Origin: Solirubrobacteraceae bacterium
GTDB lineage: Bacteria; Actinomycetota; Thermoleophilia; Solirubrobacterales; Solirubrobacteraceae
Reading direction: 5' to 3'
Assembly (NCBI GenBank): GCA_017882425.1
Contig: JADGPM010000236.1
Location: forward strand, 1-48,688
Length of the DNA stretch: 48,688 nucleotides
Positions within the stretch are counted from its first letter, which is position 1; each line of letters starts with the position of its first letter. A program made the position numbers and the translations under genes. The notes beneath the pieces were generated by a model that worked only from the letters and a program-made list of their open reading frames with translations, had not been told where the DNA came from and ran no database searches. Of this stretch, positions 1,658-29,754 are shown piece after piece.

Positions 1658-2208
1658 GCGAGGAGCTCCCGGGCGGCGCGGCCGCGATGGCTGATGGCGT
1701 CCTTCTCGCGCGGCGCGAGCTCCGCCATCGTCCGATCCGAGTGATCGTCGTCCGGCATGAACGCCGGGTCGTAGCCGAAGCCGCCCTCGCCGCGCGGCGC
1801 CGCGGTCAGGACGCCGCGGCAGCGCCCCTCGAAGAGGCGCTCGTCGCCGTCCACGCCGACGTAGGCCAGGGCGCAGACGTACTCCGCGCCGCTCCCGTCC
1901 GGGACGTCCGCGAGCAGCTTCTCGAGGTTCTCCTCGTCCGTCGCGTCCTCGCCGGCGAAGCGGGCCGAGCGCACGCCGGGCGCGCCGTCGAGCGCGTCCG
2001 CCTCGATCCCGGAGTCGTCGGCGATCGCATCGCGCCCCGTCGCCGCGACGGCCGCGCGCGCCTTCAGGAGCGCGTTCTCGGCGAACGTGATCCCGGTCTC
2101 CGGCGGAAGATCGACCTCCGGAGGCAGCGGATCCACCGTGTGGGGGCCCAGCAGCAGCGAGAATTCGCGCACCTTGTGCGGGTTGCGCGTCGCGAGCAGC
2201 AGCCTCAT
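1639..2208 (-). CDS. rdgB: dITP/XTP pyrophosphatase (RdgB/HAM1 family)
   Basis: This is the last 189 aa of ORF 1639..2760, starting [16 protein letters not shown]. Motifs ATRNxHK, ADDSG and FGYDP are present. The ATG at 2206-2208 overlaps the rph stop (ATGA). The upstream part of the ORF is Arg/Gly junk. Confidence 0.9.
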
Positions 2209-2945
2209 GTCCCCGCGGCGGCGATCGCGGCCTCCTGCGCGGCCCGCAGCCCCTCGATGCCGCGCGCCGCCAGCACGAGCAGGTCGTCGAGGTGCGCCCG
2301 CTGGAGCGGCGTGCCCTCGGCCGTCGCCTGGACCTCGAGCAGCCCGCCGTCCCCGGTCATCACGACGTTCGCGTCGACCTCGGCGCCGGAGTCCTCGCGG
2401 TAGTCGAGATCGAGCAGCGGCGTGGTGCCGACGATGCCGCAGGAGACCGCCGCGACCGACCCCGTCAGCGGCAGCGCCGGGATCCGCTCCTCGGCGACCA
2501 GGCGCCGGCAGCCGAGCACGAGCGCGACGTAGGCGCCCGTGATCGACGCGCAGCGCGTGCCGCCGTCGGCCTCGAGGACGTCGCAGTCGATGTTGATCGT
2601 GAACTCGCCGAGCGCCGCGTAGTCCACGACGCCGCGCAGCGAGCGTCCGATCAGGCGCTGGATCTCGATCGTGCGCCCGTCCTGGCGGCCGCGCACGGCG
2701 TCGCGGCCCTTGCGCTCCCCGGTCGACGCGGGGAGCATCCCGTACTCCGCGGTCAGCCACCCCAGGCCCTTGCCGGCACGCCAGCGGGGGACGCCCTGCT
2801 CGATCGACGCGGTGCAGATGACGCGGGTCCCGCCGCAGGAGATGAGAGCCGACCCGGTGGCCGTGCTCATGAAGCCGGGCTCGATCGTGACCGGGCGCAG
2901 CGCGTCCGGGGCGCGGCCGCCGGCGCGCGCTGCGACCGCGCTCAT
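2205..2945 (-). CDS. rph: ribonuclease PH
   Basis: 246 aa with [27 protein letters not shown] and [12 protein letters not shown]. Sits in the conserved murI-rph-rdgB order, with 4-nt overlaps at both ends. Confidence 0.95.
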
Positions 2946-3790
2946 GCCGCGACCTCCGCGTGCAGGCGGACCTGTTCGACCTCGCCGAGCGGGAGCTGCA
3001 GGAACCGGGTCCCGAGCATGCGGAAGGCCTCCGGGTCGCCGGTGGACAGGAAGCTGTAGGCGCCCTCGCCGGTGCGCGGGCTGCTGAGCCCGCGCGAGCC
3101 GAGCGCGTGCTCCACCTGTCGCGCGAGCGCGGCCCCGGAGGTGACGATCCGCACGTCGCGCCCGAGCATGCGCTGGAGCATCGGGCGCACCAGCGGGTAG
3201 TGCGTGCAGCCGAGGATCACGGTGTCGACCTCCGCCTCCACGAGCGGTGCGACGTATCCGCGCACGACCTCGACGACGCGCTCGTCGAACGGGAACCCGG
3301 ACTGGATCATCGGCGCGAGGTCCGGTGCGGCGACCGGGATCAGGTCGACGTGCGGGTCGGCGGCGTGGACGGCGGCGGCGTAGGCGCCGCTCGCGACGGT
3401 CGCAGTGGTGGCGAGCAGGCCGATGCGCCCGTTGTGCGTCGCGGTCACCGCGTGGACGGCCTCGGGCCCGACGACGCCGAGCACGTCGACGCCGAGCGTC
3501 GTCTCCAACATCCGCCGCCGCAGCGCGGGCAGCGCGGCCGCCGTCGCCGAGTTGCAGGCGACGACGAGCAGCTTCGCCCCGCGTGCGAGCAGCTCCTCGG
3601 CGATCTGGAGGCTGAAACGGCGCAGCTCGTCCGGCCCGCGGTCCCCGTAGGGAAAGCGCGCGGTGTCGCCGAGGTAGACGAAGTCCTCGTTGGGGAGTCG
3701 CACGAGGAGCTCGTGCAGGACGGTGAGGCCGCCGACGCCGGAGTCGAACACCGCGATCGGCCGCTCGCGCGGGTCGCTCGGAAAGCGCAC
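2942..3790 (-). CDS. murI: glutamate racemase
   Basis: 282 aa with DSGVGGLTV, the catalytic Cys motifs VVACNSA and LGCTHYP, and [11 protein letters not shown]. Confidence 0.95.
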
Positions 3791-19761: not shown

Positions 19762-19836
19762 GCCGTCCCGCAACGGCCGCCGCCGGTCTGTGCGATCGCG
19801 CACACGAGCGCCTGCGCCATGCTTCCCCCGTCACGG

Positions 19837-19865
19837 GAAAACCCCGATGGCGACTGGGGTTTTTC
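19837..19865. terminator. A-tract/stem/T-tract intrinsic terminator (bidirectional shape)
   Basis: gAAAACCCC-gatggcgact-GGGGTTTTTc, conspicuous in this GC-rich DNA, about 75 nt after the stop of 19219..19761. Confidence 0.5.
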
Positions 19866-20016
19866 ACGGTGCGCGTCGCGGCGGACTACGGCGATTTGCA
19901 GGGATGTTTTGGGATTCCCAGTGCGTTTGCCAGAATGCCTGCATCCCGTCGTCGCGGCCGGCCTCAACCGGACTCGGCGCGGGATCGTTTTCTGTCGTCT
20001 ACCAGTTTCGGAACCT

Positions 20017-20646
20017 ATGCCAATTGCCTTGAAGGAGTGGGCGGTCACGGTCCGCGCGCTCGCCGAAGGAGAGCAGCTCCTCACCCTCCGCAAGGGGGGC
20101 ATCCGTGAGGAGAACAAGCACTTCGAGCTCGAGCATGACCGCTTCTTCCTGTATCCGACGTTCGATCACCAGCGCAACGACGTCGTTCGTGAGGCCCACA
20201 TGCCGGAGCTGCGCCGCGCGCTCGAAGAGGGCGTCTGGCCGGACGGCGATCCGCCGATCCACGCGCTCACGCGCGACGGCGGGATCCCGCAGCCCGACCG
20301 CGTCCGGGTCCGTGCCTGGGCCGAGGTGGCCGGGCACTACACCGTGACCGACCCGCGCGTGGTCCACGATCTGTCCCCGTTCTACGTCTGGACGACGGAC
20401 TACGCCGAGAAGCGCCTCAGCTGGAAGCCCCGCCACCCGCTGCACGTCGTGCTGCTGCGTGCGTACCGCATCCCGCGACCCGTCACGGTTCGTGTGCGCG
20501 GCGACTACGGCGGCTGTCGCTCGTGGCTGGAGATCGCCCGTGACCTCCCGTTCGAGGGCACGCCGGTCCTCTCCGACGACGAATTCGGCCGCGTCCAGGA
20601 GGAGATCGAGGCGATCGTCTCCGGGCGCGTCCCCGCGCTGGCCTGA
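20017..20646 (+). CDS. DUF1802-like protein (family recognised from the N-terminal signature only)
   Basis: In-frame ATG at 20017 gives MPIALKEWAVTVRALAEGEQLLTLRKGGIREENKHFELEHDRFFLYPTFDHQ. The ORF part upstream of this ATG runs through the terminator and is not credible. Confidence 0.7.
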   Translation: MPIALKEWAVTVRALAEGEQLLTLRKGGIREENKHFELEHDRFFLYPTFDHQRNDVVREAHMPELRRALEEGVWPDGDPPIHALTRDGGIPQPDRVRVRAWAEVAGHYTVTDPRVVHDLSPFYVWTTDYAEKRLSWKPRHPLHVVLLRAYRIPRPVTVRVRGDYGGCRSWLEIARDLPFEGTPVLSDDEFGRVQEEIEAIVSGRVPALA

Positions 20647-20699
20647 CGTCCATCTCCCCCACCGCCGAGCGACTGATCGCTGACGCCTCCGGCGTCCTG

Positions 20700-21593
20700 G
20701 TGATCGGCATCGGCGGTGGCGGCGACGTGGTCGGCGCGCTCGCCGCCGCGGGAATCGCCGAGCGGCTCGGCACCAGGGCCGAGCTCGGCGGCCTCACCTG
20801 GGAGCGCCGCCCGATCGACCCGCTCCCGGGCCCGCGCCGCCTCGACGAGGTCGTGCAGGCCGAGCGCCTGCATCCCGCCGCCGCGCTCGCCGGGCCCACC
20901 ACATCGGGCCCCGGCGGCTTCCTGTTCGCGGAGAGCGGCATGGCCGGCTTCCTCGGCCGCCCCACCGTGCTGATCGACCCCAACCCCGGCTCCGCCGTCT
21001 GCGGCGCCGGGATCGCCCGGGCGGCCCGGCATCTCGGCTGCGATCTCGTCGTCCTGCTCGACGTCGGCGGCGACGTCCTCGCGCACGGGGACGAGCCGGG
21101 ACTCGCGAGCCCGCTCGCCGATGCGGTGCTGCTCGCCGCCGCGCCCGCGATCGCGGCCACCGGGATCGGTGTCATCGCCGCGGTCTTCGGGGCCGGCTGC
21201 GACGGTGAGCTCACCCCGGCGGAGGTGCTGGAGCGCGTCGCCGAGGTGCAGGAGGCCGGCGGGGGCCTGGGGACCGACGCCCTCGCCCCTGACGTCGTCA
21301 CCCGCATCGAGGCGGCGGCCGCACGCATCCCGACCGAGGCCAGCGCGATGGCGGCGCGCTGCGCGCGTGGTCAGGTCGGCCCGGTCCCCATCCGCGGCGG
21401 CCGCCGGACGGTGGAGCTGACCGCGGACGGCGGCCTGGTGCACTGGCTGGACCCCGAGCGCGCGATCGTCTCCGCGGCCCGCCTGGCGGCGGCGGTCGCG
21501 GGCGCCGCCGACCTCGCGGCGGCCGACGCCGTCCTGGCGGCGCGCGGCGTGCGCACCGAGCTCGCCTACGAGCGCGACGCCGCGGCCGGCTGA
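20700..21593 (+). CDS. DUF1152-like protein with N-terminal glycine-rich loop GIGGGGD
   Basis: The first canonical start (GTG 20700) sits directly on the VIGIGGGGDVVGAL loop. The same frame is open upstream (LTSISPTAERLIADASGVL), so the true start is probably upstream, for example the CTG at 20643 that overlaps the DUF1802-like stop. Confidence 0.7.
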   Translation: MIGIGGGGDVVGALAAAGIAERLGTRAELGGLTWERRPIDPLPGPRRLDEVVQAERLHPAAALAGPTTSGPGGFLFAESGMAGFLGRPTVLIDPNPGSAVCGAGIARAARHLGCDLVVLLDVGGDVLAHGDEPGLASPLADAVLLAAAPAIAATGIGVIAAVFGAGCDGELTPAEVLERVAEVQEAGGGLGTDALAPDVVTRIEAAAARIPTEASAMAARCARGQVGPVPIRGGRRTVELTADGGLVHWLDPERAIVSAARLAAAVAGAADLAAADAVLAARGVRTELAYERDAAAG

Positions 21594-21599
21594 TCCCCG

Positions 21600-22349
21600 A
21601 TGTCCTGGCAGGAGACCGCCTCGCCGAACTTCCAGGCGCGCCACGACGCGCGCGACGAGAGCGCCGTCGTCGGCGTGCTGGAGCAGCTCGAGGCGACCCG
21701 CGAGCGCCTCGAGCGGTGGTTCGCACCGCTGCCCGATCACGTCGCCGTCGTCCTGCACCCCAGCGCCGGCCAGCTCACGCTCGCCCAGCCGGCTGCCGGG
21801 CTGCTGCGCCATCTGACGACGCCGGCCGCCCGCCGGTACGTCGCGGGCTGGTTCACCACGCGGGAGGTCCACGTGCTCGCCCCGCGGCTGCTCGCCGCGC
21901 GCGCGTCCAACGTGCCCGGCTCGCGCGAGATGCTGGAGCTGACCCCCTCGGCGCTCTACGCCCAGCTCGTCGTCGGCCGCGCGAACCCGGGGCTGCCACC
22001 GCCGTTCCGGCCCGCCACCGCCGTGCGGTACGCACGCTGGGCCTGGCTGTCGGCCGGCGCCGGACAGTGGTTCTCCGGGCAGACCGCGCATGCCCGCCCG
22101 GCGATCGGACGGCGCCTGCGCGAGGGCGGCGAGCCGAGCTTCCCGCCCGGGATCCGGGACGCGCAGCTGCTCGGCGGCTCCGTGCTCGACCTGCTCGTGC
22201 GCGAGGAGGGCGAGACGGCCGCGGCCGCCCTCGCCATCGCCGAGCTGCGCGACCCGCGGCGGCTGCTCGAGCATGCGTTCCGCGGGCGCAGCATCGTCCA
22301 CAGTGCGGGCGCGTGGCGCGCCCACCTGGCGCGCATGGCGAGCGCCTGA
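21600..22349 (+). CDS. hypothetical protein (249 aa), third gene of the operon
   Basis: The ATG lies 6 nt after the previous stop. Composition is protein-like (W, F, Y, H spread through it). No catalytic motif or family recognised. Confidence 0.6.
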   Translation: MSWQETASPNFQARHDARDESAVVGVLEQLEATRERLERWFAPLPDHVAVVLHPSAGQLTLAQPAAGLLRHLTTPAARRYVAGWFTTREVHVLAPRLLAARASNVPGSREMLELTPSALYAQLVVGRANPGLPPPFRPATAVRYARWAWLSAGAGQWFSGQTAHARPAIGRRLREGGEPSFPPGIRDAQLLGGSVLDLLVREEGETAAAALAIAELRDPRRLLEHAFRGRSIVHSAGAWRAHLARMASA

Positions 22350-22359
22350 GGCGGCGGGA

Positions 22360-22851
22360 TCAGCTCGAGACCAGCGAACCGACCCAGACGATCAGGCCGA
22401 CGAGCGCGACGCCGGCGAGCAGGCCGGCGAACAGCTTCGCGGGCCGCGGCCCAGGCGAGCTTGCGGAGCTGTCGTGCAGCTCGACCTGGAGCAGGACCTC
22501 GCGGGCGGTCGCCTCGCCCGAGAGCGGCACCAGCACGTCACGCGGCCCGGCGGCGAGCATGTCGGGGACGTCGAACCCGCGCGAGCGGCGCACGAGGCTC
22601 GGCACGCCCTCCTCGAGCAGCAGGTTCGAGATGAAGTCGGCCTCGGCCTGGTTGCGGCCGGTGGCGACCCTGACGAGGTCGCCCTCGGTGTACTGCGGCT
22701 TGATCTTGCGGGCGCGGGCCTGGCGCTCGGTCGCCTCGTCGCGGGCGGGGCTCTGATAGGTCAGCGGCATGCCGCAATCGGGGCAGAAGCGCTCGTCCAG
22801 GCCGTGCATCGTGGCGCAGCGGGGGCAGACGAGCAGCTCGTCGTCATCCAT
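22360..22851 (-). CDS. zinc-ribbon / DUF2007-like (putative signal-transducing) protein with C-terminal membrane anchor
   Basis: Contains CPRC..x12..CPDCG, the core GDLVRVATGRNQAEADFISNLLLEEGVP, and a C-terminal TM LFAGLLAGVALVGLIVWVGSLV. The start overlaps the mec stop region by 8 nt. Confidence 0.7.
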   Translation of the reverse strand: MDDDELLVCPRCATMHGLDERFCPDCGMPLTYQSPARDEATERQARARKIKPQYTEGDLVRVATGRNQAEADFISNLLLEEGVPSLVRRSRGFDVPDMLAAGPRDVLVPLSGEATAREVLLQVELHDSSASSPGPRPAKLFAGLLAGVALVGLIVWVGSLVSS

Positions 22852-23257
22852 CGCCGGCGACCCCGACCCCCGCGTCGACGATCCGGCCGTCGGTGATCTC
22901 GAAGCTGCGGACGTCCGGCTCGGCGTCGGCGCCGTCGGCGAGCCCGACGATCAGCCATTCGACCCCCGGCCAGTGTTGCGCGAAGTTCAGATCCGTCTGC
23001 GAGGGAAACGGCTCGGAGCGCGTGTGCGAGTGGTAGATCCCGCCGTGCTGCTCGCCGCGATCCTCGATCTCCGTGATCAGGCGGTACACCTCGAGGCCAT
23101 CGACGGCGAAGCGCATCGGGCTCGCGGCGGTGTTCTCCGCCGGGTGGACGCTGACGGCGACGCCGTCACGCACTCCGATGAGGCCGCAGCACTCGTTCGG
23201 GTGCTCGCGGCGGGCGTGGTCGACGATGATCGAGAGAAGCTCGGCGGAGATGCGCAT
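22844..23257 (-). CDS. mec: JAMM/MPN+ metalloprotease (Mec+-like, sulfur-carrier C-terminal hydrolase)
   Basis: 137 aa with the upstream Glu (HPNECCG) and the JAMM motif HSHTRSEPFPSQTD (H-x-H-x7-S-x2-D). Confidence 0.9.
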   Translation of the reverse strand: MRISAELLSIIVDHARREHPNECCGLIGVRDGVAVSVHPAENTAASPMRFAVDGLEVYRLITEIEDRGEQHGGIYHSHTRSEPFPSQTDLNFAQHWPGVEWLIVGLADGADAEPDVRSFEITDGRIVDAGVGVAGDG

Positions 23258-23288
23258 CGCCGCCGAGACTAGTGCTTCGAGTGGCGGG

Positions 23289-23498
23289 TCAGGCGACGGT
23301 GGAGTCGTCCGACTTCGCCTGCAGGACGGGCTTCTCGATTGCCTCGTCGCGGTCGTCGTGATCGCCGCTCAGCGACTCCTTGAACTCGCGCATCCCCTTG
23401 CCGACGGAGCGCCCGACCTCGGGCAGCTTCTTCGGGCCGAGGACGACGAGCGCGATGATGAGCACGACGACGAGTTCCATGGGGCCGATGCTGGGCAT
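23289..23498 (-). CDS. tatA: twin-arginine translocase subunit TatA/E
   Basis: MPSIGPMELVVVLIIALVVLGPKKLPEVGRSVGKGMREFKE. Start is ATG 23498 or GTG 23504. Confidence 0.85.
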   Translation of the reverse strand: MPSIGPMELVVVLIIALVVLGPKKLPEVGRSVGKGMREFKESLSGDHDDRDEAIEKPVLQAKSDDSTVA

Positions 23499-23549
23499 GA
23501 CCACAGGGTACGGGTTCGGCGGGCGTGGGGCGACGGTTCAGCGGATGGA

Positions 23550-24524
23550 CTACCACCACAGCGTCGACTCGAGATCCTCGATCTCGTCGACGGGCAGCGT
23601 GTAGATCCCGCTGGACAGGTACTTCCAGCCGTCGTCGCAGACGATGAAGACGACGTTGCCCTCGTCCATCTCGTTCGCGATGCGCACGGCGACGCGCGCG
23701 ATCGCCCCGGACGAGACGCCGGCGAACAGCCCCTCCTCGTCGAGCAGCCTGCGCGTCCAGAGGATCGCGTCGCGGTTCGTCACGAAGATCTTGCGGTCGA
23801 GCAGCGAGAGATCGATGATCGGCGGGATGAAGCCGTCGTCGAGCGAACGCAGGCCCTGCACGGGCTCGCCCTGCATCGGCTCGGCGGCGACGATCTTCAC
23901 GCGATCGCCGAGCTCCTCCTTGAACCGGCGTGCGTGCCCCATCAGCGTGCCGCCGGTGCCCAGACCCGCGACGAACGCGTCGACCCGGCCCTCGAGCTCG
24001 AGCAGGATCTCCCGCGCGGTGCCCTCGTAGTGGGCGCGCGGGTTGGCCTCGTTCCCGTACTGGTAGGGCATGTAGTACGAGGGGTCGGCGGCGGCCATGT
24101 CGAGCGCCATCGCGACGGCCCCGTTCGAGCCCTGGTCGCCCGGGGAGTAGACGATCTCGGCGCCGTACATCTTCAGCAGCTGGGTGCGCTCGGGCGTGAC
24201 GTTGTCCGGCATCACGACCTTGAGCTTGTAGCCCTTGCGCGAGCAGATCATCCCGAGCGCGATGCCGGTGTTGCCGGAGGTCGGCTCGAGGATCGTCTGC
24301 CCGGGCCGGATGAGGCCCTTCTCCTCGGCGTCCTCGATCAGCGCCTTCGCGACGCGATCCTTCACCGAGCCGGTCGGGTTGCGGCTCTCGAGCTTGGCCC
24401 AGATCCGTACGCCGGGCTTGGGCGAGAGGCGCCGCAGCTCGACGAGCGGCGTGTTGCCGATCGCCTCGACGATGTCGGTGTACCGCCCCCCGCAGGGGCG
24501 TGTCTCCAGCGGCGGATAGGCCAT
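23550..24524 (-). CDS. cysM: cysteine synthase B-like PLP enzyme (CysM/CysK family)
   Basis: This is the last 324 aa of ORF 23550..24896, from MAYPPLE. Motifs are NPTGSVKDR (PLP Lys), TSGNTG and GLGTGGTL. The upstream ORF part is Arg-rich junk. Confidence 0.9.
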   Translation of the reverse strand: MAYPPLETRPCGGRYTDIVEAIGNTPLVELRRLSPKPGVRIWAKLESRNPTGSVKDRVAKALIEDAEEKGLIRPGQTILEPTSGNTGIALGMICSRKGYKLKVVMPDNVTPERTQLLKMYGAEIVYSPGDQGSNGAVAMALDMAAADPSYYMPYQYGNEANPRAHYEGTAREILLELEGRVDAFVAGLGTGGTLMGHARRFKEELGDRVKIVAAEPMQGEPVQGLRSLDDGFIPPIIDLSLLDRKIFVTNRDAILWTRRLLDEEGLFAGVSSGAIARVAVRIANEMDEGNVVFIVCDDGWKYLSSGIYTLPVDEIEDLESTLWW

Positions 24525-24570
24525 GGCTTTCCGAAATATAGCGAGCGGCGGGACTCGCCCGGGACGCTGA

Positions 24571-25755
24571 TCACCAGCTCGCGCGCAGGCGCTCCAGGCC
24601 GCTGCGGATCTCCTGCGGCGGATGCGTCGTGAACGACAGGCGCAACGCACGGGAATCCGGCGTTCCGGCGAAGAACGGGGCGCCCGGGACGAACGCCACG
24701 CGCTGCTCGATCGCGCGCGCGAGCAGCTCCTGCGCGTCGTGGCCCTGGGGCAGCCGCGCCCAGACGAACATCCCGCCGGCCGGGCGGTTCCAGGTGCTCC
24801 CCGGCGGGAGCGCCCCGGCCAGCCCGCCGAGCAGGGCGTCGCGCCGCTCGCGATAGACCTCGCACAGCCCGGCGATCCGGGCGCCGAGGTCGACATCGGC
24901 GAGCCACGCGGCGGCTGCGGCCTGGTCGATGGTCGAGGAGTGCAGGTCGGCCGCCTGCTTGGCGACGACGAGCCCGCGGCGCAGCGCCGCCGGCGTGCGG
25001 ACCCAGCCGATCCGCAGGCCCGGCGCGGCGATCTTCGAGAGTGTCGAGAGCGCGAGCGTGCGGTCCGCGGCGGGGCCCAGCGCGGCGATCGGACCTTCGG
25101 CGTCGCCCTCGAAGCGCAGCGCGCCGTACGGGTCGTCCTCGATCAGCCACAGGCCGCGGCGCGCGGCGATCTCCGCCACGGCGACGCGGCGCGCGGCCGG
25201 CAGCGTGCGCCCCGTCGGGTTCTGGAAGTTCGGGATCAGGTAGAGCGCGACGGGTCGCTCGGCGGCGGCCGTCGCGTCGAGCGCCTCCGGCACGATGCCG
25301 TCCTCGTCACAGGCGACCGGCACCACGCGCGCGCCGGCGAGCGCGAAGCACTGCAGCGCCGCGAGGTAGGAGGGCTCCTCGACGAGCACGACGTCGCCCG
25401 GCTCGAGCAGGACCGTCGCGATCAGCGTGAGCGCCTGCTGGGAGCCGCTCGTGACGAGGACGTCGCCGGGCTCCGTGCGCAGGCCGCGCGCCTCCAGCAG
25501 GCCGGCGATCTGCCCGCGCAGGCGCGGGTCGCCCTCCGTCGTGGAGTACTGCAGCGCGCGAGGCGCGTCCGCTCCGCTCAGGACGCGGTCATAGGCGGCG
25601 CGCAGCCCCGCGACGTCGAACAGCTCGGGCGCCGGGAGGCCGCCCGCGAACGAGATGAACCCCGGCTGCTCGGTGAGCGCCAGGATGTCGCGGACCGGCG
25701 AGCCGGCGACCCCACGCAGGCGGGCGGCGGGCTCGCGCGGGGCGGCGACGCTCAG
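24571..25755 (-). CDS. PLP-dependent aminotransferase, class I/II (AspC/ARO8/LysN-like)
   Basis: The track ORF 24571..25389 is only the C-terminal two thirds. My translation of the same frame upstream gives LSVAAPREPAARLRGVAGSPVRDILALTEQPGFISFAGGLPAPELF...ALQYSTTEGDPRLRGQIAG...VLVTSGSQQALTLIATVLLEPGDVVLVEEPSY, a typical N-terminal domain. That stretch has no in-frame ATG, GTG or TTG. The CTG at 25753-25755 overlaps the cysO stop. Confidence 0.8.
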   Translation of the reverse strand: MSVAAPREPAARLRGVAGSPVRDILALTEQPGFISFAGGLPAPELFDVAGLRAAYDRVLSGADAPRALQYSTTEGDPRLRGQIAGLLEARGLRTEPGDVLVTSGSQQALTLIATVLLEPGDVVLVEEPSYLAALQCFALAGARVVPVACDEDGIVPEALDATAAAERPVALYLIPNFQNPTGRTLPAARRVAVAEIAARRGLWLIEDDPYGALRFEGDAEGPIAALGPAADRTLALSTLSKIAAPGLRIGWVRTPAALRRGLVVAKQAADLHSSTIDQAAAAAWLADVDLGARIAGLCEVYRERRDALLGGLAGALPPGSTWNRPAGGMFVWARLPQGHDAQELLARAIEQRVAFVPGAPFFAGTPDSRALRLSFTTHPPQEIRSGLERLRASW

Positions 25756-26027
25756 CTCCCGCCGGCCATCGCCGGCAGGATCACGAGCGAGTCGGACTCG
25801 CCTACGGGTGTCTCGAGGCCGTCGAGGACGCGGACGTCCTCGTCGTTGAGGTAGACGTTGACGTAGCGGTTCAGGTCACCGTCCGTCCCGAACAGCTGCG
25901 AGCTCGTCTCCGGATGCGCCGTCGCGAGGTTGCGCAGGACGTCGCCGACGTTCGCGCCGTCGGCGCTCACCTCGCGCTCCCCGCCGACGGAGGGGCGCAG
26001 GACCGGTGGGATACGGATCGTGGCCAT
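25752..26027 (-). CDS. cysO: ThiS/MoaD/CysO-family sulfur-carrier protein ending in GG-Ser
   Basis: This is the last 91 aa of ORF 25752..26132 (MATIRIPPVLRPSVGG...VILPAMAGGS), with a beta-grasp-like pattern. It lies directly downstream of the E1 gene. Confidence 0.8.
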   Translation of the reverse strand: MATIRIPPVLRPSVGGEREVSADGANVGDVLRNLATAHPETSSQLFGTDGDLNRYVNVYLNDEDVRVLDGLETPVGESDSLVILPAMAGGS

Positions 26028-26038
26028 GGCGGCGGACC

Positions 26039-27220
26039 CTATCCGGCGGCGGCGCAGAACGCCTCGTAGTCGGGGAAGACGCCGAGCTCCTCGTCGGAGA
26101 TCTCGTCCGGCTCGCGCGAGCAGATCGGGCACTCGGGGTCGCGGCGCACCTTCAGCTCCGTGACCTCGGCGGCGAGCGCGTCATACATCAGCAGGCGGCC
26201 GATCAGCGGGTCGCCGGCACCGATGATGAGCTTGATGACCTCCGTCGCCTGTAGCAGCCCCATCGTCCCCGGGAGCACGCCGAGGACACCGTTGGCGCCG
26301 CACGACGGCGCGAGCTCCGCGGGCGGCGGCTGGCGGAAGAGGCAGCGGTAGCACGGGCCCTCATAGGGCTTGAAGACGCTGAGCTGGCCCTCGAAGCCGA
26401 GGATCGCGGCGGAGACGACCGGGATCTTCAGGCGGACCGTCGCGTCGTTGAGCAGGTAGCGGGTCGGGAAGTTGTCGACGCCGTCGACGATGATGTCCCA
26501 GCCCTCGATGATCTCCATGATGTTCGAGGCGTCCAGGCGCGTCCTGTACTTCACGACCTCGACGTCCGGGTTGAGGTCGTTGATGACCTCCGCCGCCGAG
26601 TCGACCTTCGACACGCCGATGCGCGAGGTGCTGTGGATGACCTGGCGCTGCAGGTTGGAGAGGTCCACGACGTCGTCGTCGACGATGCCCAGGGTGCCGA
26701 CGCCGGCCGCGGCGAGATACAGGGCCGTCGGCGACCCGAGGCCGCCGGCGCCGAGCAGCAGGACCCTGGCGTCGAGCAGCTTCTGCTGGCCGTCGATCCC
26801 GACCTCGGGGACGAGCAGGTGGCGGCTGTAGCGCTCGCGCTGCTCGGGTGTGAAGCTGCGCGGCACCTCGACCTCGTAGCCGCGGTCCTTCCACAGCGTG
26901 ATCCCGCCGGTCATCGACTCGACGTGCTCGTAACCCAGGTCGCGCTGCAGCGTGTTGGCGGCGAACACGGAGCGGTTGCCCGCGGCGCAGTAGAGGATCA
27001 CGCGCTGCGAGCGGTCCGGGACGACGCCGTCGATGCGCTGCTCGAGGTAGCCGCGCGGGACGTGGATCGCGCCCGGCAGCCTGCCGGAGGCGAGCTCCTC
27101 GCTCTCGCGCACGTCGATGACGGTCACGCCCTCGCCGATCAGTTGGGCGACCTCGGACGGGTCGACCTCCGAGATCTCCGCCCTCAGGCGGCGCAGATGC
27201 TCGCTTCCGGACACGCTCAT
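26039..27220 (-). CDS. rhodanese-fused ThiF/MoeB-type E1 adenylyltransferase/sulfurtransferase (MoeZ-like, rhodanese N-terminal)
   Basis: The N-terminal rhodanese has active-site CAAGNRS. The E1 fold has LLLGAGGLGSP and zinc CxxC pairs CYRC and CPIC. An AGGTGA SD lies 7 nt before the ATG. Confidence 0.9.
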   Translation of the reverse strand: MSVSGSEHLRRLRAEISEVDPSEVAQLIGEGVTVIDVRESEELASGRLPGAIHVPRGYLEQRIDGVVPDRSQRVILYCAAGNRSVFAANTLQRDLGYEHVESMTGGITLWKDRGYEVEVPRSFTPEQRERYSRHLLVPEVGIDGQQKLLDARVLLLGAGGLGSPTALYLAAAGVGTLGIVDDDVVDLSNLQRQVIHSTSRIGVSKVDSAAEVINDLNPDVEVVKYRTRLDASNIMEIIEGWDIIVDGVDNFPTRYLLNDATVRLKIPVVSAAILGFEGQLSVFKPYEGPCYRCLFRQPPPAELAPSCGANGVLGVLPGTMGLLQATEVIKLIIGAGDPLIGRLLMYDALAAEVTELKVRRDPECPICSREPDEISDEELGVFPDYEAFCAAAG

Positions 27221-27315
27221 CGGTAAATCACCTGTTCTGGATCAGCTTTCGGCACTTCACAAAGGATAGCGGATCGATCCGAGTCCGCCGCGATCCCGGA
27301 AAGGGGCCCTGGAAC

Positions 27316-27357: not shown

Positions 27358-27475
27358 CTGTTGGAGGCCAAGCGCAGATCAAAGGGGGAAAGATCCGGAG
27401 CGCCCGGTGGTCCTAGGGGGATGCACAGGGGGTATCGGACGCTGCGCGATCGGCCGATATGGGGTCCAGACCCCA

Positions 27476-28486
27476 ATGCACGCACTCCGACTCCCCCAGC
27501 GACGCTCCGCGCGCCTGACGCGTCCGTCCCTGCTCGCCCAGGTGCTCGGCGTGAACGCCGCGCTGATCGGCGCCACCGTGCTGACCGCGAGCCTCGCGGT
27601 CGACTGGGGGGGCCACGGCGTCGCCGAGCACCGCCGCTCGCTGCTGCTCGTCGCCGCGCTGCTCGCGACCGTCCTGGTGAACGGCTTCGTCCTGCGCCGG
27701 CGGTTCGAGCCGCTCGAGCGCCTGATCGACACGATGGAGCAGGTCGACGGCGCCGACGCGCACTCACGTCCGCGGCTCCCGCCCGGCGAGACCGAGGAGG
27801 TCGTGCGCCTGCACCAGGCGTTCGACCGGATGCTCGACCGGCTCGAGACCGAGCGCGCCCGGACCGCGAGTGCCGTCCTCCAGGCCCAGGAGGAGGAGCG
27901 CGCACGGATCGCGCGCGACCTGCACGACGAGGCCAACCAGGCGCTCACGGGCGTCCTGCTGCGCCTGGAGGCGACCGGCCAGCGGGTGCCCGAGGACCTG
28001 CGTCCGGAGCTGCGCGAGACCCAGCGCGCCGCCACCCAGGCGATCGAGGAGCTGCTGCGCCTCGCGCGCGAGCTGCGGCCCGCGGCGCTGGACGACCACG
28101 GCCTGGCCGCGGCGCTGCGCACGAAGGTCAGCGACTTCGCACGCCAGACCGGCGTGCATGCCGAGCTCAGCCTCGCGGGCGCCGACGTCGACGAGCTGCG
28201 TCCCGAGGAGCAGATCGTCGTCTACCGCGTCGTCCAGGAGAGCCTGTCGAACGTCGCCCAGCACGCCCGCGCGGGCAACGTCCGTGTGGCGTTCGCGCGC
28301 GAGCGCGGCGCAACCGTCGCCCGCGTGCAGGACGACGGCTGCGGCTTCGCCGACGCGACCCCGAGCGGCCACGGGCTGACCGGCATGCGCGAGCGCGCCG
28401 CCCTCGCCGGCGGGTCGCTCGACGTGCACTCGGCGCCCGGCGACGGCACCACGATCGAGCTGCGGCTCGGGGAGCGGGCGGCGTGA
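27476..28486 (+). CDS. sensor histidine kinase, HisKA_3 (NarL-partner) type
   Basis: Two N-terminal TM helices, a HAMP-like linker, the H-box ARDLHDEANQALT and the G-box GHGLTGMRERA. Start is ATG 27476 (MHALRL) or GTG 27407. Confidence 0.85.
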   Translation: MHALRLPQRRSARLTRPSLLAQVLGVNAALIGATVLTASLAVDWGGHGVAEHRRSLLLVAALLATVLVNGFVLRRRFEPLERLIDTMEQVDGADAHSRPRLPPGETEEVVRLHQAFDRMLDRLETERARTASAVLQAQEEERARIARDLHDEANQALTGVLLRLEATGQRVPEDLRPELRETQRAATQAIEELLRLARELRPAALDDHGLAAALRTKVSDFARQTGVHAELSLAGADVDELRPEEQIVVYRVVQESLSNVAQHARAGNVRVAFARERGATVARVQDDGCGFADATPSGHGLTGMRERAALAGGSLDVHSAPGDGTTIELRLGERAA

Positions 28487-29121
28487 GCACGCGCGTCCTG
28501 ATCGCCGACGACCACGGCATCGTCCGCGGCGGCCTGAAGCTCCTGCTCGAGCGCCAGCCCGACATCGAGGTCGTCGGCGAGGCGGCCGACGGCGCCGAGG
28601 CCGTCGAGCGCGCACTGTCGCTGCGTCCCGACCTGGCGATCCTCGACGTCTCGATGCCGCTGCTGACCGGCATCCAGGCGACGCACGAGATCAAGCGCCA
28701 TGCCCCGGAGGTCGACGTGCTCGTGCTGTCGATGCACGACGACGAGCGCTACGTGTTCGAGGCGCTGAAGGCCGGCGCCTCCGGCTACGTCCTCAAGCGC
28801 GAGGCCGACCAGGACCTCGTCGACGCCGTCCGCTCCGTCGCGCGCGGCGAGCCCTTCCTGACGAACGCCGCGACCGAGACGCTCGTGCGCGAGTGGATGG
28901 CCGACGAGACGACCGGCCCGCGCGAGCCGCTCAGCCAGCGCGAGCAGGAGGTCCTGAAGCTCATCGCCGAGGCGCACACGAATCGCGCGATCGGGGAGAT
29001 CCTGCACCTCAGCGAGAAGACCGTCGAGTCCCACCGCGGGAACATCCTGCGCAAGCTCGGCATGCGCGACCGCGTCGAGCTGGTGCGCTACGCGATCCGC
29101 CGCGGGCTCGTCGAGGCCTGA
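28483..29121 (+). CDS. NarL/FixJ-family response regulator (REC + LuxR HTH)
   Basis: The GTG at 28483 overlaps the kinase stop (GTGA). Contains VLIADDH, ILDVSMP, and the HTH LSQREQEVLKLIAEAHTNRAIGEILHLSEKTVESHRGNILRKLG. Confidence 0.9.
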   Translation: MSTRVLIADDHGIVRGGLKLLLERQPDIEVVGEAADGAEAVERALSLRPDLAILDVSMPLLTGIQATHEIKRHAPEVDVLVLSMHDDERYVFEALKAGASGYVLKREADQDLVDAVRSVARGEPFLTNAATETLVREWMADETTGPREPLSQREQEVLKLIAEAHTNRAIGEILHLSEKTVESHRGNILRKLGMRDRVELVRYAIRRGLVEA

Positions 29122-29148: not shown

Positions 29149-29754
29149 ATGCACCCCCGCGTGCGCCTCACGCTCATGGCCGTCGCAACGCTGGCGCTCG
29201 TCGGGATCCTGGCGTTCGTCGTCTTCAGCGACCCGAGCGACGGCACCGCGAACCCGGCGCCGGCCACGCGCTTCGACGGGTCGATCAGCCCGCCCGCCCC
29301 GCCCCAGGACTTCGCACTGCGCGACCAGGACGGCCGGCTGACCCGCCTCTCGGGCGAGCGCGGCCACGTGACGGTGCTGACGTTCATGTACACGACCTGC
29401 CGGAACGACTGCCCGACGATGGCCCAGCAGATCCGCGGCGCCATCGACCACACCGGCGGGAACGTTCCGGTCCTCGCGGTCAGCGTCGACCCCAGGAACG
29501 ACACGCCGGCCAGCGCCCGCAGGTTCGTCGCCGAGCAGCACCTGATCGGCCGCATGCGCTTCCTGCTCGGCACCGAGGCCCAGCTCCAGCGTGTCTGGCG
29601 CCGCTACGGCATCCAGCCGCAGAGCACGAGCCTCGAGCACACCGCCTACGTCATCGTCATCGACAAGACCGGCCGCGCCCGCGTCAGCTTCCCCATCTCC
29701 GAGCTGACACCCGAGGGCCTCGCCCACGACATCCAGGTCCTGCAGAAGTCCTGA
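29149..29754 (+). CDS. SCO1/SenC-family copper chaperone / thiol-disulfide protein
   Basis: Signal anchor LTLMAVATLALVGILAFVVF, the CxxxC motif YTTCRNDCP, and a downstream His (LEHTAYVIVID). Confidence 0.85.
   Translation: MHPRVRLTLMAVATLALVGILAFVVFSDPSDGTANPAPATRFDGSISPPAPPQDFALRDQDGRLTRLSGERGHVTVLTFMYTTCRNDCPTMAQQIRGAIDHTGGNVPVLAVSVDPRNDTPASARRFVAEQHLIGRMRFLLGTEAQLQRVWRRYGIQPQSTSLEHTAYVIVIDKTGRARVSFPISELTPEGLAHDIQVLQKS

Follow-up and report, generated by a model that had tools for sequence, protein, structure and literature searches.

Organization of the locus

The window analyzed here, a 48,688-nucleotide contig (JADGPM010000236.1) of a Solirubrobacteraceae bacterium, carries on its minus strand, between positions 22360 and 27220, a compact cluster of seven co-directional genes built around a sulfur-carrier system (Table 1). 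Recognized from the list of open reading frames, a three-frame translation, and Pfam and NCBIfam matches, the genes encode, in order, an E1-type activating enzyme with a rhodanese domain, a CysO-like beta-grasp carrier, a class I aminotransferase, a CysM-type cysteine synthase, a TatA protein, a JAMM/Mec-type metallopeptidase, and a membrane protein with a zinc ribbon. Intergenic spacings along this order are 11, -4, 46, 45, 31 and -8 nt, in agreement with the original prediction, which was made from the sequence alone and described seven genes with short gaps or overlaps, the last overlapping the peptidase gene by 8 nt (22844 versus 22851).

The identical gene order is seen again in the related loci L001, L002 (the same locus as L007), L087 and L088, and is therefore not due to chance. 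The window has a G+C content of ~74%, homologues of its proteins are annotated as Solirubrobacteraceae or Solirubrobacterales, and its DNA is detected in permafrost, peat and soil metagenomes. An exact look-up of the window E1 protein returned no record, and an Rfam scan of the window and the operon found neither a riboswitch nor any other RNA family. A recent origin of the operon by horizontal transfer was considered and rejected, third-position GC being 0.91-0.97 in all seven genes, like that of their neighbours.

Table 1. Genes and motif copies of the sulfur-carrier cluster
Feature	Position	Strand	Description and evidence
Motif copy CGCTATCCTTTGTGAAG	27255..27271	-	34 nt upstream of E1 ATG
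E1	26039..27220	-	N-terminal rhodanese and ThiF/MoeB adenylation domain; Pfam, NCBIfam
CysO-like beta-grasp carrier	25752..26027	-	Pfam ThiS; SAMP1-like; PDB match to CysO
LysN/KAT-II-type class I aminotransferase, 394 aa	24571..25755	-	Pfam Aminotran_1_2; frame analysis; inferred CTG start
Motif copy CGCTATATTTCGGAAAG	24527..24543	-	2 nt upstream of cysM ATG
CysM (PALP fold)	23550..24524	-	PDB matches to M. tuberculosis CysM
TatA	23289..23504	-	Likely start ATG at 23498, 69 aa; Pfam, NCBIfam
JAMM/Mec-type metallopeptidase	22844..23257	-	Pfam Prok-JAB; intact motif
Zinc-ribbon protein, 163 aa, tail-anchored (predicted)	22360..22851	-	Start overlaps JAMM gene by 8 nt

A CysO-type core with cysteine as its probable product

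Four of the seven proteins correspond to components of the Mycobacterium tuberculosis mec-cysO-cysM pathway. The E1 combines an adenylation and a rhodanese domain: it matches NCBIfam PRK08762 across both domains (561 bits, cut-off 449), scores 272 bits for ThiF and 61 bits for Rhodanese in Pfam, and retains a rhodanese active-site loop, CAAGNR, and both CxxC motifs (CYRC and CPIC). The carrier has M. tuberculosis CysO as its top match in the Protein Data Bank (PDB) (3DWG_C, E = 4.6e-20), with an alignment that reaches the terminal GG, and the JAMM protein matches Prok-JAB at 75 bits, carries the complete E...HxHx7Sx2D motif (NECCG; HSHTRSEPFPSQTD), and finds JAMM1 and 2KKS in the PDB. Together with CysM, these matches bear out the proposal of a system of E1, ubiquitin-like carrier, JAMM peptidase and CysM related to mec-cysO-cysM.

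The top PDB matches of the window CysM are the M. tuberculosis CysM structures 3DKI, 3DWG and 3DWI (E ~4e-93, 316 bits, end to end), followed by CysK- and CysM-type O-acetylserine enzymes at no more than 252 bits; in global alignment, the window and M. tuberculosis enzymes are 53% identical over their full length. K55, R226 and the LESTLWW tail of the window protein align with K51, R220 and LEGQLWA of the M. tuberculosis enzyme, and the TSGNT loop and C-terminal LW tail are conserved, so that the pyridoxal phosphate (PLP) lysine, the R220 equivalent and the C-terminal tail of an O-phosphoserine-type CysM are all present. R220 reportedly takes part in the recognition of O-phosphoserine (Agren et al. 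2008). No MetY-type (Cys_Met_Meta_PP) enzyme was found among the window genes with Pfam or NCBIfam, the sole sulfhydrylase being a PALP-fold member of the CysK/CysM family, and neither the window neighbourhood nor related loci showed a gene for an AMP-ligase, a P450, a methyltransferase or any other tailoring enzyme. As the synthase resembles M. tuberculosis CysM, and as genes for MetY, AMP-ligase and tailoring enzymes are missing, the product, judged from these homologies, is most likely cysteine rather than homocysteine. The original prediction had raised the possibility of a product other than cysteine, which is unlikely for a full-length relative of the O-phosphoserine-type enzyme.

In M. 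tuberculosis, CysO is adenylated and converted to a thiocarboxylate, which adds to the aminoacrylate derived from O-phosphoserine, and Mec then hydrolyses the CysO-Cys product (PMC3227635). By homology, the window proteins would follow a similar course in five steps. The JAMM peptidase would first remove the residue that follows the GG of the carrier, after which the ThiF domain of the E1 would adenylate the C-terminal glycine and a persulfide on the rhodanese cysteine of the same enzyme would turn the adenylate into a thiocarboxylate. CysM would make the aminoacrylate from O-phosphoserine for attack by the carrier thiocarboxylate; following an S-to-N acyl shift, the JAMM peptidase would hydrolyse the GG-Cys bond, freeing cysteine and regenerating the carrier.

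A conserved core and a variable slot

The arrangement was compared across species-representative loci retrieved through the CysM protein (the best 80 of at least 584 matches, with CysM 82-95% identical to that of the window), onto which the seven window proteins were mapped by tblastn. Downstream genes were counted in the 73 loci with enough downstream sequence, and the interval between carrier and cysM in the 61 species loci with both in view. In most of the Solirubrobacterales species loci examined, the E1-carrier pair is found upstream of CysM at a distance of no more than 8 kb. Downstream of CysM, the JAMM gene is present in 72 of 73 loci and the zinc-ribbon gene in 70, adjoining the JAMM gene in 68.

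The interval between carrier and cysM, by comparison, ranges from 32 nt to 7.7 kb. The carrier sits directly upstream of cysM (within 110 nt) in 15 of the 61 loci, and in the remaining 46 a spacer of 0.3-7.7 kb is occupied by genes, in either orientation, of more than 25 unrelated families. Among the occupants of this slot are a GMC oxidoreductase (10 loci), a secreted lipoprotein (8 loci), histidine kinases, an EamA transporter and a class III transaminase. In L018 (6226-7977), a HemL-like class III transaminase and a 105-aa membrane protein directly precede cysM, the gaps being 13 and 24 nt, and the same pair is also found directly upstream of cysM in L012 and L014.

The second variable member is TatA, which clears both relevant models (PF02416, TatA_B_E, 68 bits versus 21; TIGR01411, tatAE, 64 bits versus 53.9) and so belongs to the TatA/E family. 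The predicted Tat component is thus indeed encoded here, but a tatA gene stands between CysM and JAMM in only 35 of the 73 loci; from this distribution, TatA is best described as a facultative, lineage-specific passenger rather than a pathway step. Twenty-eight loci have one or two ferritin-like proteins (Ferritin_2/DUF4439) between cysM and tatA or the JAMM gene, sometimes with a cupredoxin (for example, L015 8602-10220). The inspected copies bear twin-arginine signals, and these inserts are probable Tat substrates beside a Tat component.

Most carriers are probably encoded as precursors

The window carrier ends in ...ILPAMAGG-S (25752-25757), its GG aligning with the terminus of CysO but being followed by one serine. 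All carriers in the comparison share ...ILPAMAGG, yet the GG forms the very end in only 14 of 63, and the other 49 bear 1-11 variable residues past it, among them R, A, AR, C, S, CC and SHGVATATAAT. The tail is a single cysteine in three loci and Cys-Cys in one, mimicking the CysO-Cys product.

As adenylation requires a free GG, the tail must be trimmed by a peptidase, and we propose by analogy that the linked JAMM peptidase probably also matures the carrier in this way. Trimming of this kind has been proposed for QbsD/QbsE and CxnF/CxnE (PMC5925218). Since the pathway role of the peptidase is hydrolysis of GG-Cys, tails would be cut as a side effect, would be harmless and could drift neutrally, which would explain their variety among relatives.

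Tailed carriers also raise the possibility that the cluster makes another thio-amino acid or a sulfur-containing secondary metabolite, in the style of HcyS/MetY, QbsCDE (thioquinolobactin) or chuangxinmycin biosynthesis, systems in which an aminotransferase supplies the keto-acid that is then thiolated. The carriers QbsE and CxnE likewise have residues past GG for which JAMM removal is proposed, and in the cxn cluster a tailed carrier and a JAMM protein occur together with an aminotransferase (PMC5925218). However, Qbs and Cxn are secondary-metabolite clusters with AMP-ligase, P450 or radical-SAM genes and no CysM, and the window has a CysM relative as its only acceptor enzyme and none of the AMP-ligase or tailoring enzymes that mark the Qbs/Cxn type. 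The Wolinella homocysteine pathway (HcyS/HcyD/HcyF/MetY) reportedly also combines a protein thiocarboxylate donor with a C-terminal carrier residue that a metalloprotease removes (Krishnamoorthy and Begley 2011). The acceptor enzyme there is of MetY type, an O-acetylhomoserine sulfhydrylase, and the window synthase is instead a CysM of fold type II that is close to the one of M. tuberculosis, which places the locus outside this pathway. Moreover, the core is conserved across the whole order, as expected of primary metabolism. We consider such a product very improbable.

A motif shared by two probable transcription units

Aligning the spacers between aminotransferase and cysM revealed an A+T-rich block beside the cysM ATG. 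Comparison of the 80 loci showed CGCTAYAYTyCGTGAAGTA ahead of the cysM start regardless of the upstream gene, with no conservation of the sequence further upstream. The motif was found upstream of cysM in 54 (+1) species loci, with its -10-like hexamer TAYAYT ending 10 nt before the cysM start codon in 52 of 65 loci. It recurs 35-45 nt ahead of the E1 start in 46 of 47 loci, and a leader with an AGGAG ribosome-binding site follows it there. The 18-nt consensus reads CGCTAYAYTnnnTGAAGT. A 16-nt pattern, searched on both strands, occurs 96 times in 1.17 Mb of related loci, and all 96 occurrences precede E1 or cysM. Within the window, this pattern has two matches (24527-24542 and 27255-27270) against 0.03 expected, and the shorter core CGCTAYMYT is found at the same two places only. 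Most copies contain an inverted repeat (ACTT-N4-AAGT or ACTTC-N2-GAAGT) that overlaps TAYAYT and is degenerate in the cysM copy of the window. The motif is kept even where the carrier directly abuts cysM.

The cysM-side motif is a candidate promoter or operator, and the cysM mRNA would have almost no leader. The distribution of the motif points to two co-regulated units, E1-carrier(-aminotransferase) and cysM(-tatA)-JAMM-zinc ribbon, and two units under one control would explain why the gap between carrier and cysM tolerates insertions. The original prediction had all seven genes co-transcribed; the motif between aminotransferase and cysM makes two units probable instead, a result that goes part of the way towards what that prediction had itself listed as counting against it.

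A single operon could nevertheless be read from a promoter upstream of E1, with the cysM motif serving only as a regulator-binding or translation element. The spacing is compact, a scan for consensus promoters found no sigma-70-type site, and the aminotransferase-cysM gap holds one weak terminator-like hairpin that is within chance, folds no better than shuffled sequence (z = 0.78) and has a T-run that belongs to the motif. Metatranscriptome contigs over the cysM 5' region of a relative are few, some of them crossing the motif from upstream, and show no clean 5' ends; a 600-nt stretch of the window compared with sequencing reads returned only short unitigs of other CysM relatives, none of which spans the junction. 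Yet the same motif stands upstream of E1, where a promoter must exist, and it also precedes cysM at loci where the E1-carrier pair lies 2-7 kb away with opposite-strand genes in between. Given, in addition, the fixed position of the -10-like hexamer, we judge a single operon unlikely and retain the reading of two units. A HisKA_3/NarL-type two-component system (27407-29121) was considered as the general regulator of the motif and rejected: it sits between the SCO1 and E1 genes in only ~14 loci, whereas the motif is universal, and it could at best add a lineage-specific layer.

The aminotransferase as a probable insert

The aminotransferase frame has no ATG, GTG or TTG before codon 123, and its only plausible start is a CTG overlapping the TGA stop of the carrier gene (CTGA; 25753-25755). 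Full-length homologues (~399 aa) align from this CTG and cover 100% of the CTG-start protein. The gene call in the collection (P0015) shortens the protein to 272 aa; calls for the window and the 90%-identical L001 give 272-296 aa, and those for other 92-93%-identical proteins 294-296 aa. The codon at this site is CTG in L001, TTG in L002 and ATG in L087. We infer that the gene begins at the CTG and is translated by termination-reinitiation. A programmed -1 frameshift fusing carrier and aminotransferase was rejected, there being no slippery heptamer, and such a fusion would bury the GG.

The best PDB matches of the protein are PH0207, LysN and MsAT (E ~1e-76, full length), and it shares with the LysN/KAT-II/PH0207 enzymes a PLP-lysine motif (STLSKI) and an N-terminal SxxR substrate-recognition segment. 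Unlike these enzymes proper, it passes no NCBIfam equivalog cut-off, and no neighbours from the lysine alpha-aminoadipate pathway were found, which leaves it outside LysN itself. The subfamily check called for by the original prediction hence assigns the enzyme to the LysN/KAT-II/PH0207 group at the level of family similarity.

The seven-gene order, for which a neighbourhood survey had been suggested, does recur in the few loci named above, but the aminotransferase lies between carrier and CysM in a single one of the 61 species loci (L002); L001, L087 and L088, in which it fills the same slot, were recovered through aminotransferase homologues. Five unrelated contexts, a Streptomyces genome among them, harbour homologues of 70-71% identity. 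Because the slot is hypervariable and homologues of about 70% identity occur in unrelated contexts, we read the aminotransferase as an insert: in this comparison it is a lineage-specific passenger, one of many interchangeable inserts, and not a pathway step. Its proposed place as a conserved pathway member thus does not hold, the slot being empty in 15 of 61 loci and filled by more than 25 other families elsewhere.

The aminotransferase could still be a true pathway enzyme in this lineage, either making O-phosphoserine from 3-phosphohydroxypyruvate, in place of or in addition to SerC, or interconverting cysteine and 3-mercaptopyruvate to feed the rhodanese. Its 4-nt overlap couples its translation to that of the carrier, and L001, L002, L087 and L088 have all preserved the arrangement even as the aminotransferase diverged to 73% identity (E1 to 77%). 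The conserved STLSKI motif, together with an alignment to solved aminotransferases over the full length, speaks for an active enzyme, and an unrelated class III transaminase stands beside cysM in L012, L014 and L018. On the other hand, 60 of the 61 species loci have the same core without the aminotransferase, many unrelated genes occupy its slot, and its nearest homologues lie in unrelated contexts. Furthermore, the enzyme is of the LysN/KAT-II class, not the class V family of SerC, and drawing on cysteine for the sulfur donor of cysteine synthesis would be futile. A pathway role is accordingly improbable in our estimate.

A zinc-ribbon membrane protein linked to the JAMM peptidase

The zinc-ribbon protein consists of a Cys4 ribbon (C9, C12, C23 and C26), a basic linker, a small alpha/beta domain resembling DUF2007 and a C-terminal transmembrane helix. 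Thirty-four homologues share the four invariant cysteines, the basic linker RARKIKPQY, a strongly conserved middle domain, much of it invariant, and a hydrophobic C-terminus. An AlphaFold2 model (predicted local distance difference test, pLDDT, 81.6) has the ribbon, a beta-alpha-beta-beta-alpha domain and a terminal helix at residues 137-162. A fold search with this model returned nothing at E <= 0.001, the nearest matches being small alpha/beta domains, namely EscJ/PrgK, 2HFV (a DUF2007 structure, E = 0.18), ACT and PII. Zinc-ribbon matches in Pfam all fall under their gathering cut-offs (~20-23 versus 25-27 bits), and DUF2007 (PF09413) itself reaches 13 bits versus 25.7 (E = 0.12), with 60 of 66 profile positions matched. 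One homologue carries a precomputed PF09413 match, and a resemblance to DUF2007 is plausible. The zinc ribbon and the membrane anchor of the original description therefore stand as predictions, but the DUF2007 assignment remains below threshold.

A profile search of 1.84 billion representatives gave 1398 proteins at E <= 0.001, of which 122 reach E <= 1e-30; many are fragments. In the homologue search, the named matches are all from Solirubrobacterales, which points to a family that has limited diversity and is centred on Solirubrobacterales. Because the gene follows the JAMM gene directly at nearly all loci, often overlapping it, we argue for a physical or regulatory partnership: on the strength of this linkage, the protein is most likely a conserved partner of the JAMM peptidase, holding that enzyme or the carrier at the membrane or regulating one of them there. 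The original prediction had suggested that it could couple the pathway to the envelope.

Zinc-ribbon and NZF domains bind ubiquitin in eukaryotes, and an E1, a carrier and a JAMM peptidase could support reversible protein conjugation like archaeal SAMPylation, besides or instead of sulfur transfer, with the zinc-ribbon protein as adaptor, receptor or target. The carrier lies just over the NCBIfam SAMP1 cut-off (61.6 against 60), the E1 resembles UbaA (337 bits, under the cut-off), and the sole NCBIfam match of the JAMM protein is desampylase (67.7 versus a cut-off of 130, thus below it). The pairing of the zinc-ribbon and JAMM genes fits this idea, as does a weak fold match of the zinc-ribbon protein to the NZF domain of HOIL-1L (E = 0.59). 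That fold match is not significant, however, and nothing resembling an E2 or E3 gene is present. The cluster is always linked to CysM, and the carrier and CysM best match the partners of the solved CysO-CysM complex. We thus give little credence to conjugation and keep to sulfur transfer, with the zinc-ribbon protein as a partner of the peptidase.

Bolder readings concern this protein and, separately, the duplicated motif. The zinc-ribbon protein would be an obligate, undescribed component of the pathway in Thermoleophilia (for example, a membrane-tethered JAMM/carrier receptor or regulator), and the inverted-repeat motif would define a new sulfur- or redox-responsive regulon of two units. We hold these readings to be tentative, and on balance doubt them.

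Comparison with known systems

An operon of ThiS/MoaD-type carrier, rhodanese-fused E1, JAB protein and cysteine synthase was catalogued in 2006 by Iyer, Burroughs and Aravind (Table 1, row 4c), who listed it in Rubrobacter, Chloroflexus, Salinibacter, P. aeruginosa and others (PMC1779556). The window has the same four components clustered within 4.9 kb on one strand and falls under the type 4c definition, and the catalogue includes a deep-branching actinobacterium. The E1 is indeed encoded within the cluster, beside the carrier, as had been predicted, but in view of row 4c and of the linkage seen in most Solirubrobacterales loci this feature is not atypical. The catalogue, for its part, describes no zinc-ribbon partner, variable slot, shared motif or carrier tails.

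With the M. tuberculosis system (mec-cysO-cysM, Rv1334-1336, and MoeZR, Rv3206c), the window shares the JAMM peptidase, an adenylation-rhodanese E1, a CysM that keeps the PLP lysine, the R220 equivalent and the tail, and a carrier whose best solved relative is CysO. Several features differ. In the window, the E1 is encoded beside the carrier, the gene order is E1-carrier...CysM...JAMM instead of mec-cysO-cysM, the carrier has a residue past GG, unlike CysO, and a zinc-ribbon, tail-anchored gene follows JAMM. Neither an AosR (DUF2017) or ClpS neighbour nor a SigH-type promoter was seen in the window, which has the different, shared motif instead.

Taken together, we regard it as likely that the locus encodes the M. 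tuberculosis-type protein-thiocarboxylate route to cysteine in a Solirubrobacterales layout, arranged in two units and with the aminotransferase and TatA as passengers. Several points weigh against parts of this interpretation. The window E1 has its rhodanese domain first, the reverse of MoeZR, and its two CxxC motifs also set it apart from MoeZR; the use of O-phosphoserine rests on orthology and on one residue of reputed function. The aminotransferase is tightly packed and translationally coupled to the carrier, and its retention despite divergence shows more stability than would be required of a neutral hitch-hiker. A second kind of aminotransferase beside cysM in L012, L014 and L018 may be a coincidence or a hint of a real link. 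Finally, the cysM-side motif may be an operator without promoter activity, in which case read-through from E1 to the zinc-ribbon gene could occur.

Neighbouring genes

Genes for RNase PH (rph) and glutamate racemase (murI) lie at 2205-3790, ~20 kb from the cluster. Their M. tuberculosis counterparts (Rv1338 and Rv1340) flank mec-cysO-cysM, and their presence here may be a remnant of old synteny. Nearer the cluster, a 249-aa protein without a Pfam match (21600-22349, plus strand) is encoded convergently to the zinc-ribbon gene in at least 45 loci, and an SCO1/SenC gene (29149-29754, plus strand) is divergent from E1 in many loci. At 19819-21593, DUF1802 and DUF1152 genes and a gene for a 180-aa protein without a Pfam match form a conserved block, the DUF1802/DUF1152 block being found also in L002 and L088.

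Implications

The locus represents a version, particular to its lineage, of an established pathway, and adds detail to a known system instead of uncovering a new one. Work on the CysO route to cysteine has centred almost exclusively on M. tuberculosis, in which the route is regarded as a drug target and as protection against oxidative stress. To our knowledge, three features have not been described for this pathway: the motif in duplicate, the putative precursor carriers and the zinc-ribbon membrane protein paired with JAMM. The comparison also carries a caution, as tight spacing and even translational coupling do not suffice to make a gene a pathway member; here, the cross-species view presents the aminotransferase and TatA as interchangeable inserts. 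The value of the locus is modest and lies in showing how the same chemistry is organized in an abundant, poorly studied order of soil actinobacteria, with a linked E1, a probable precursor carrier, an extra conserved membrane protein and a control motif duplicated before two units.

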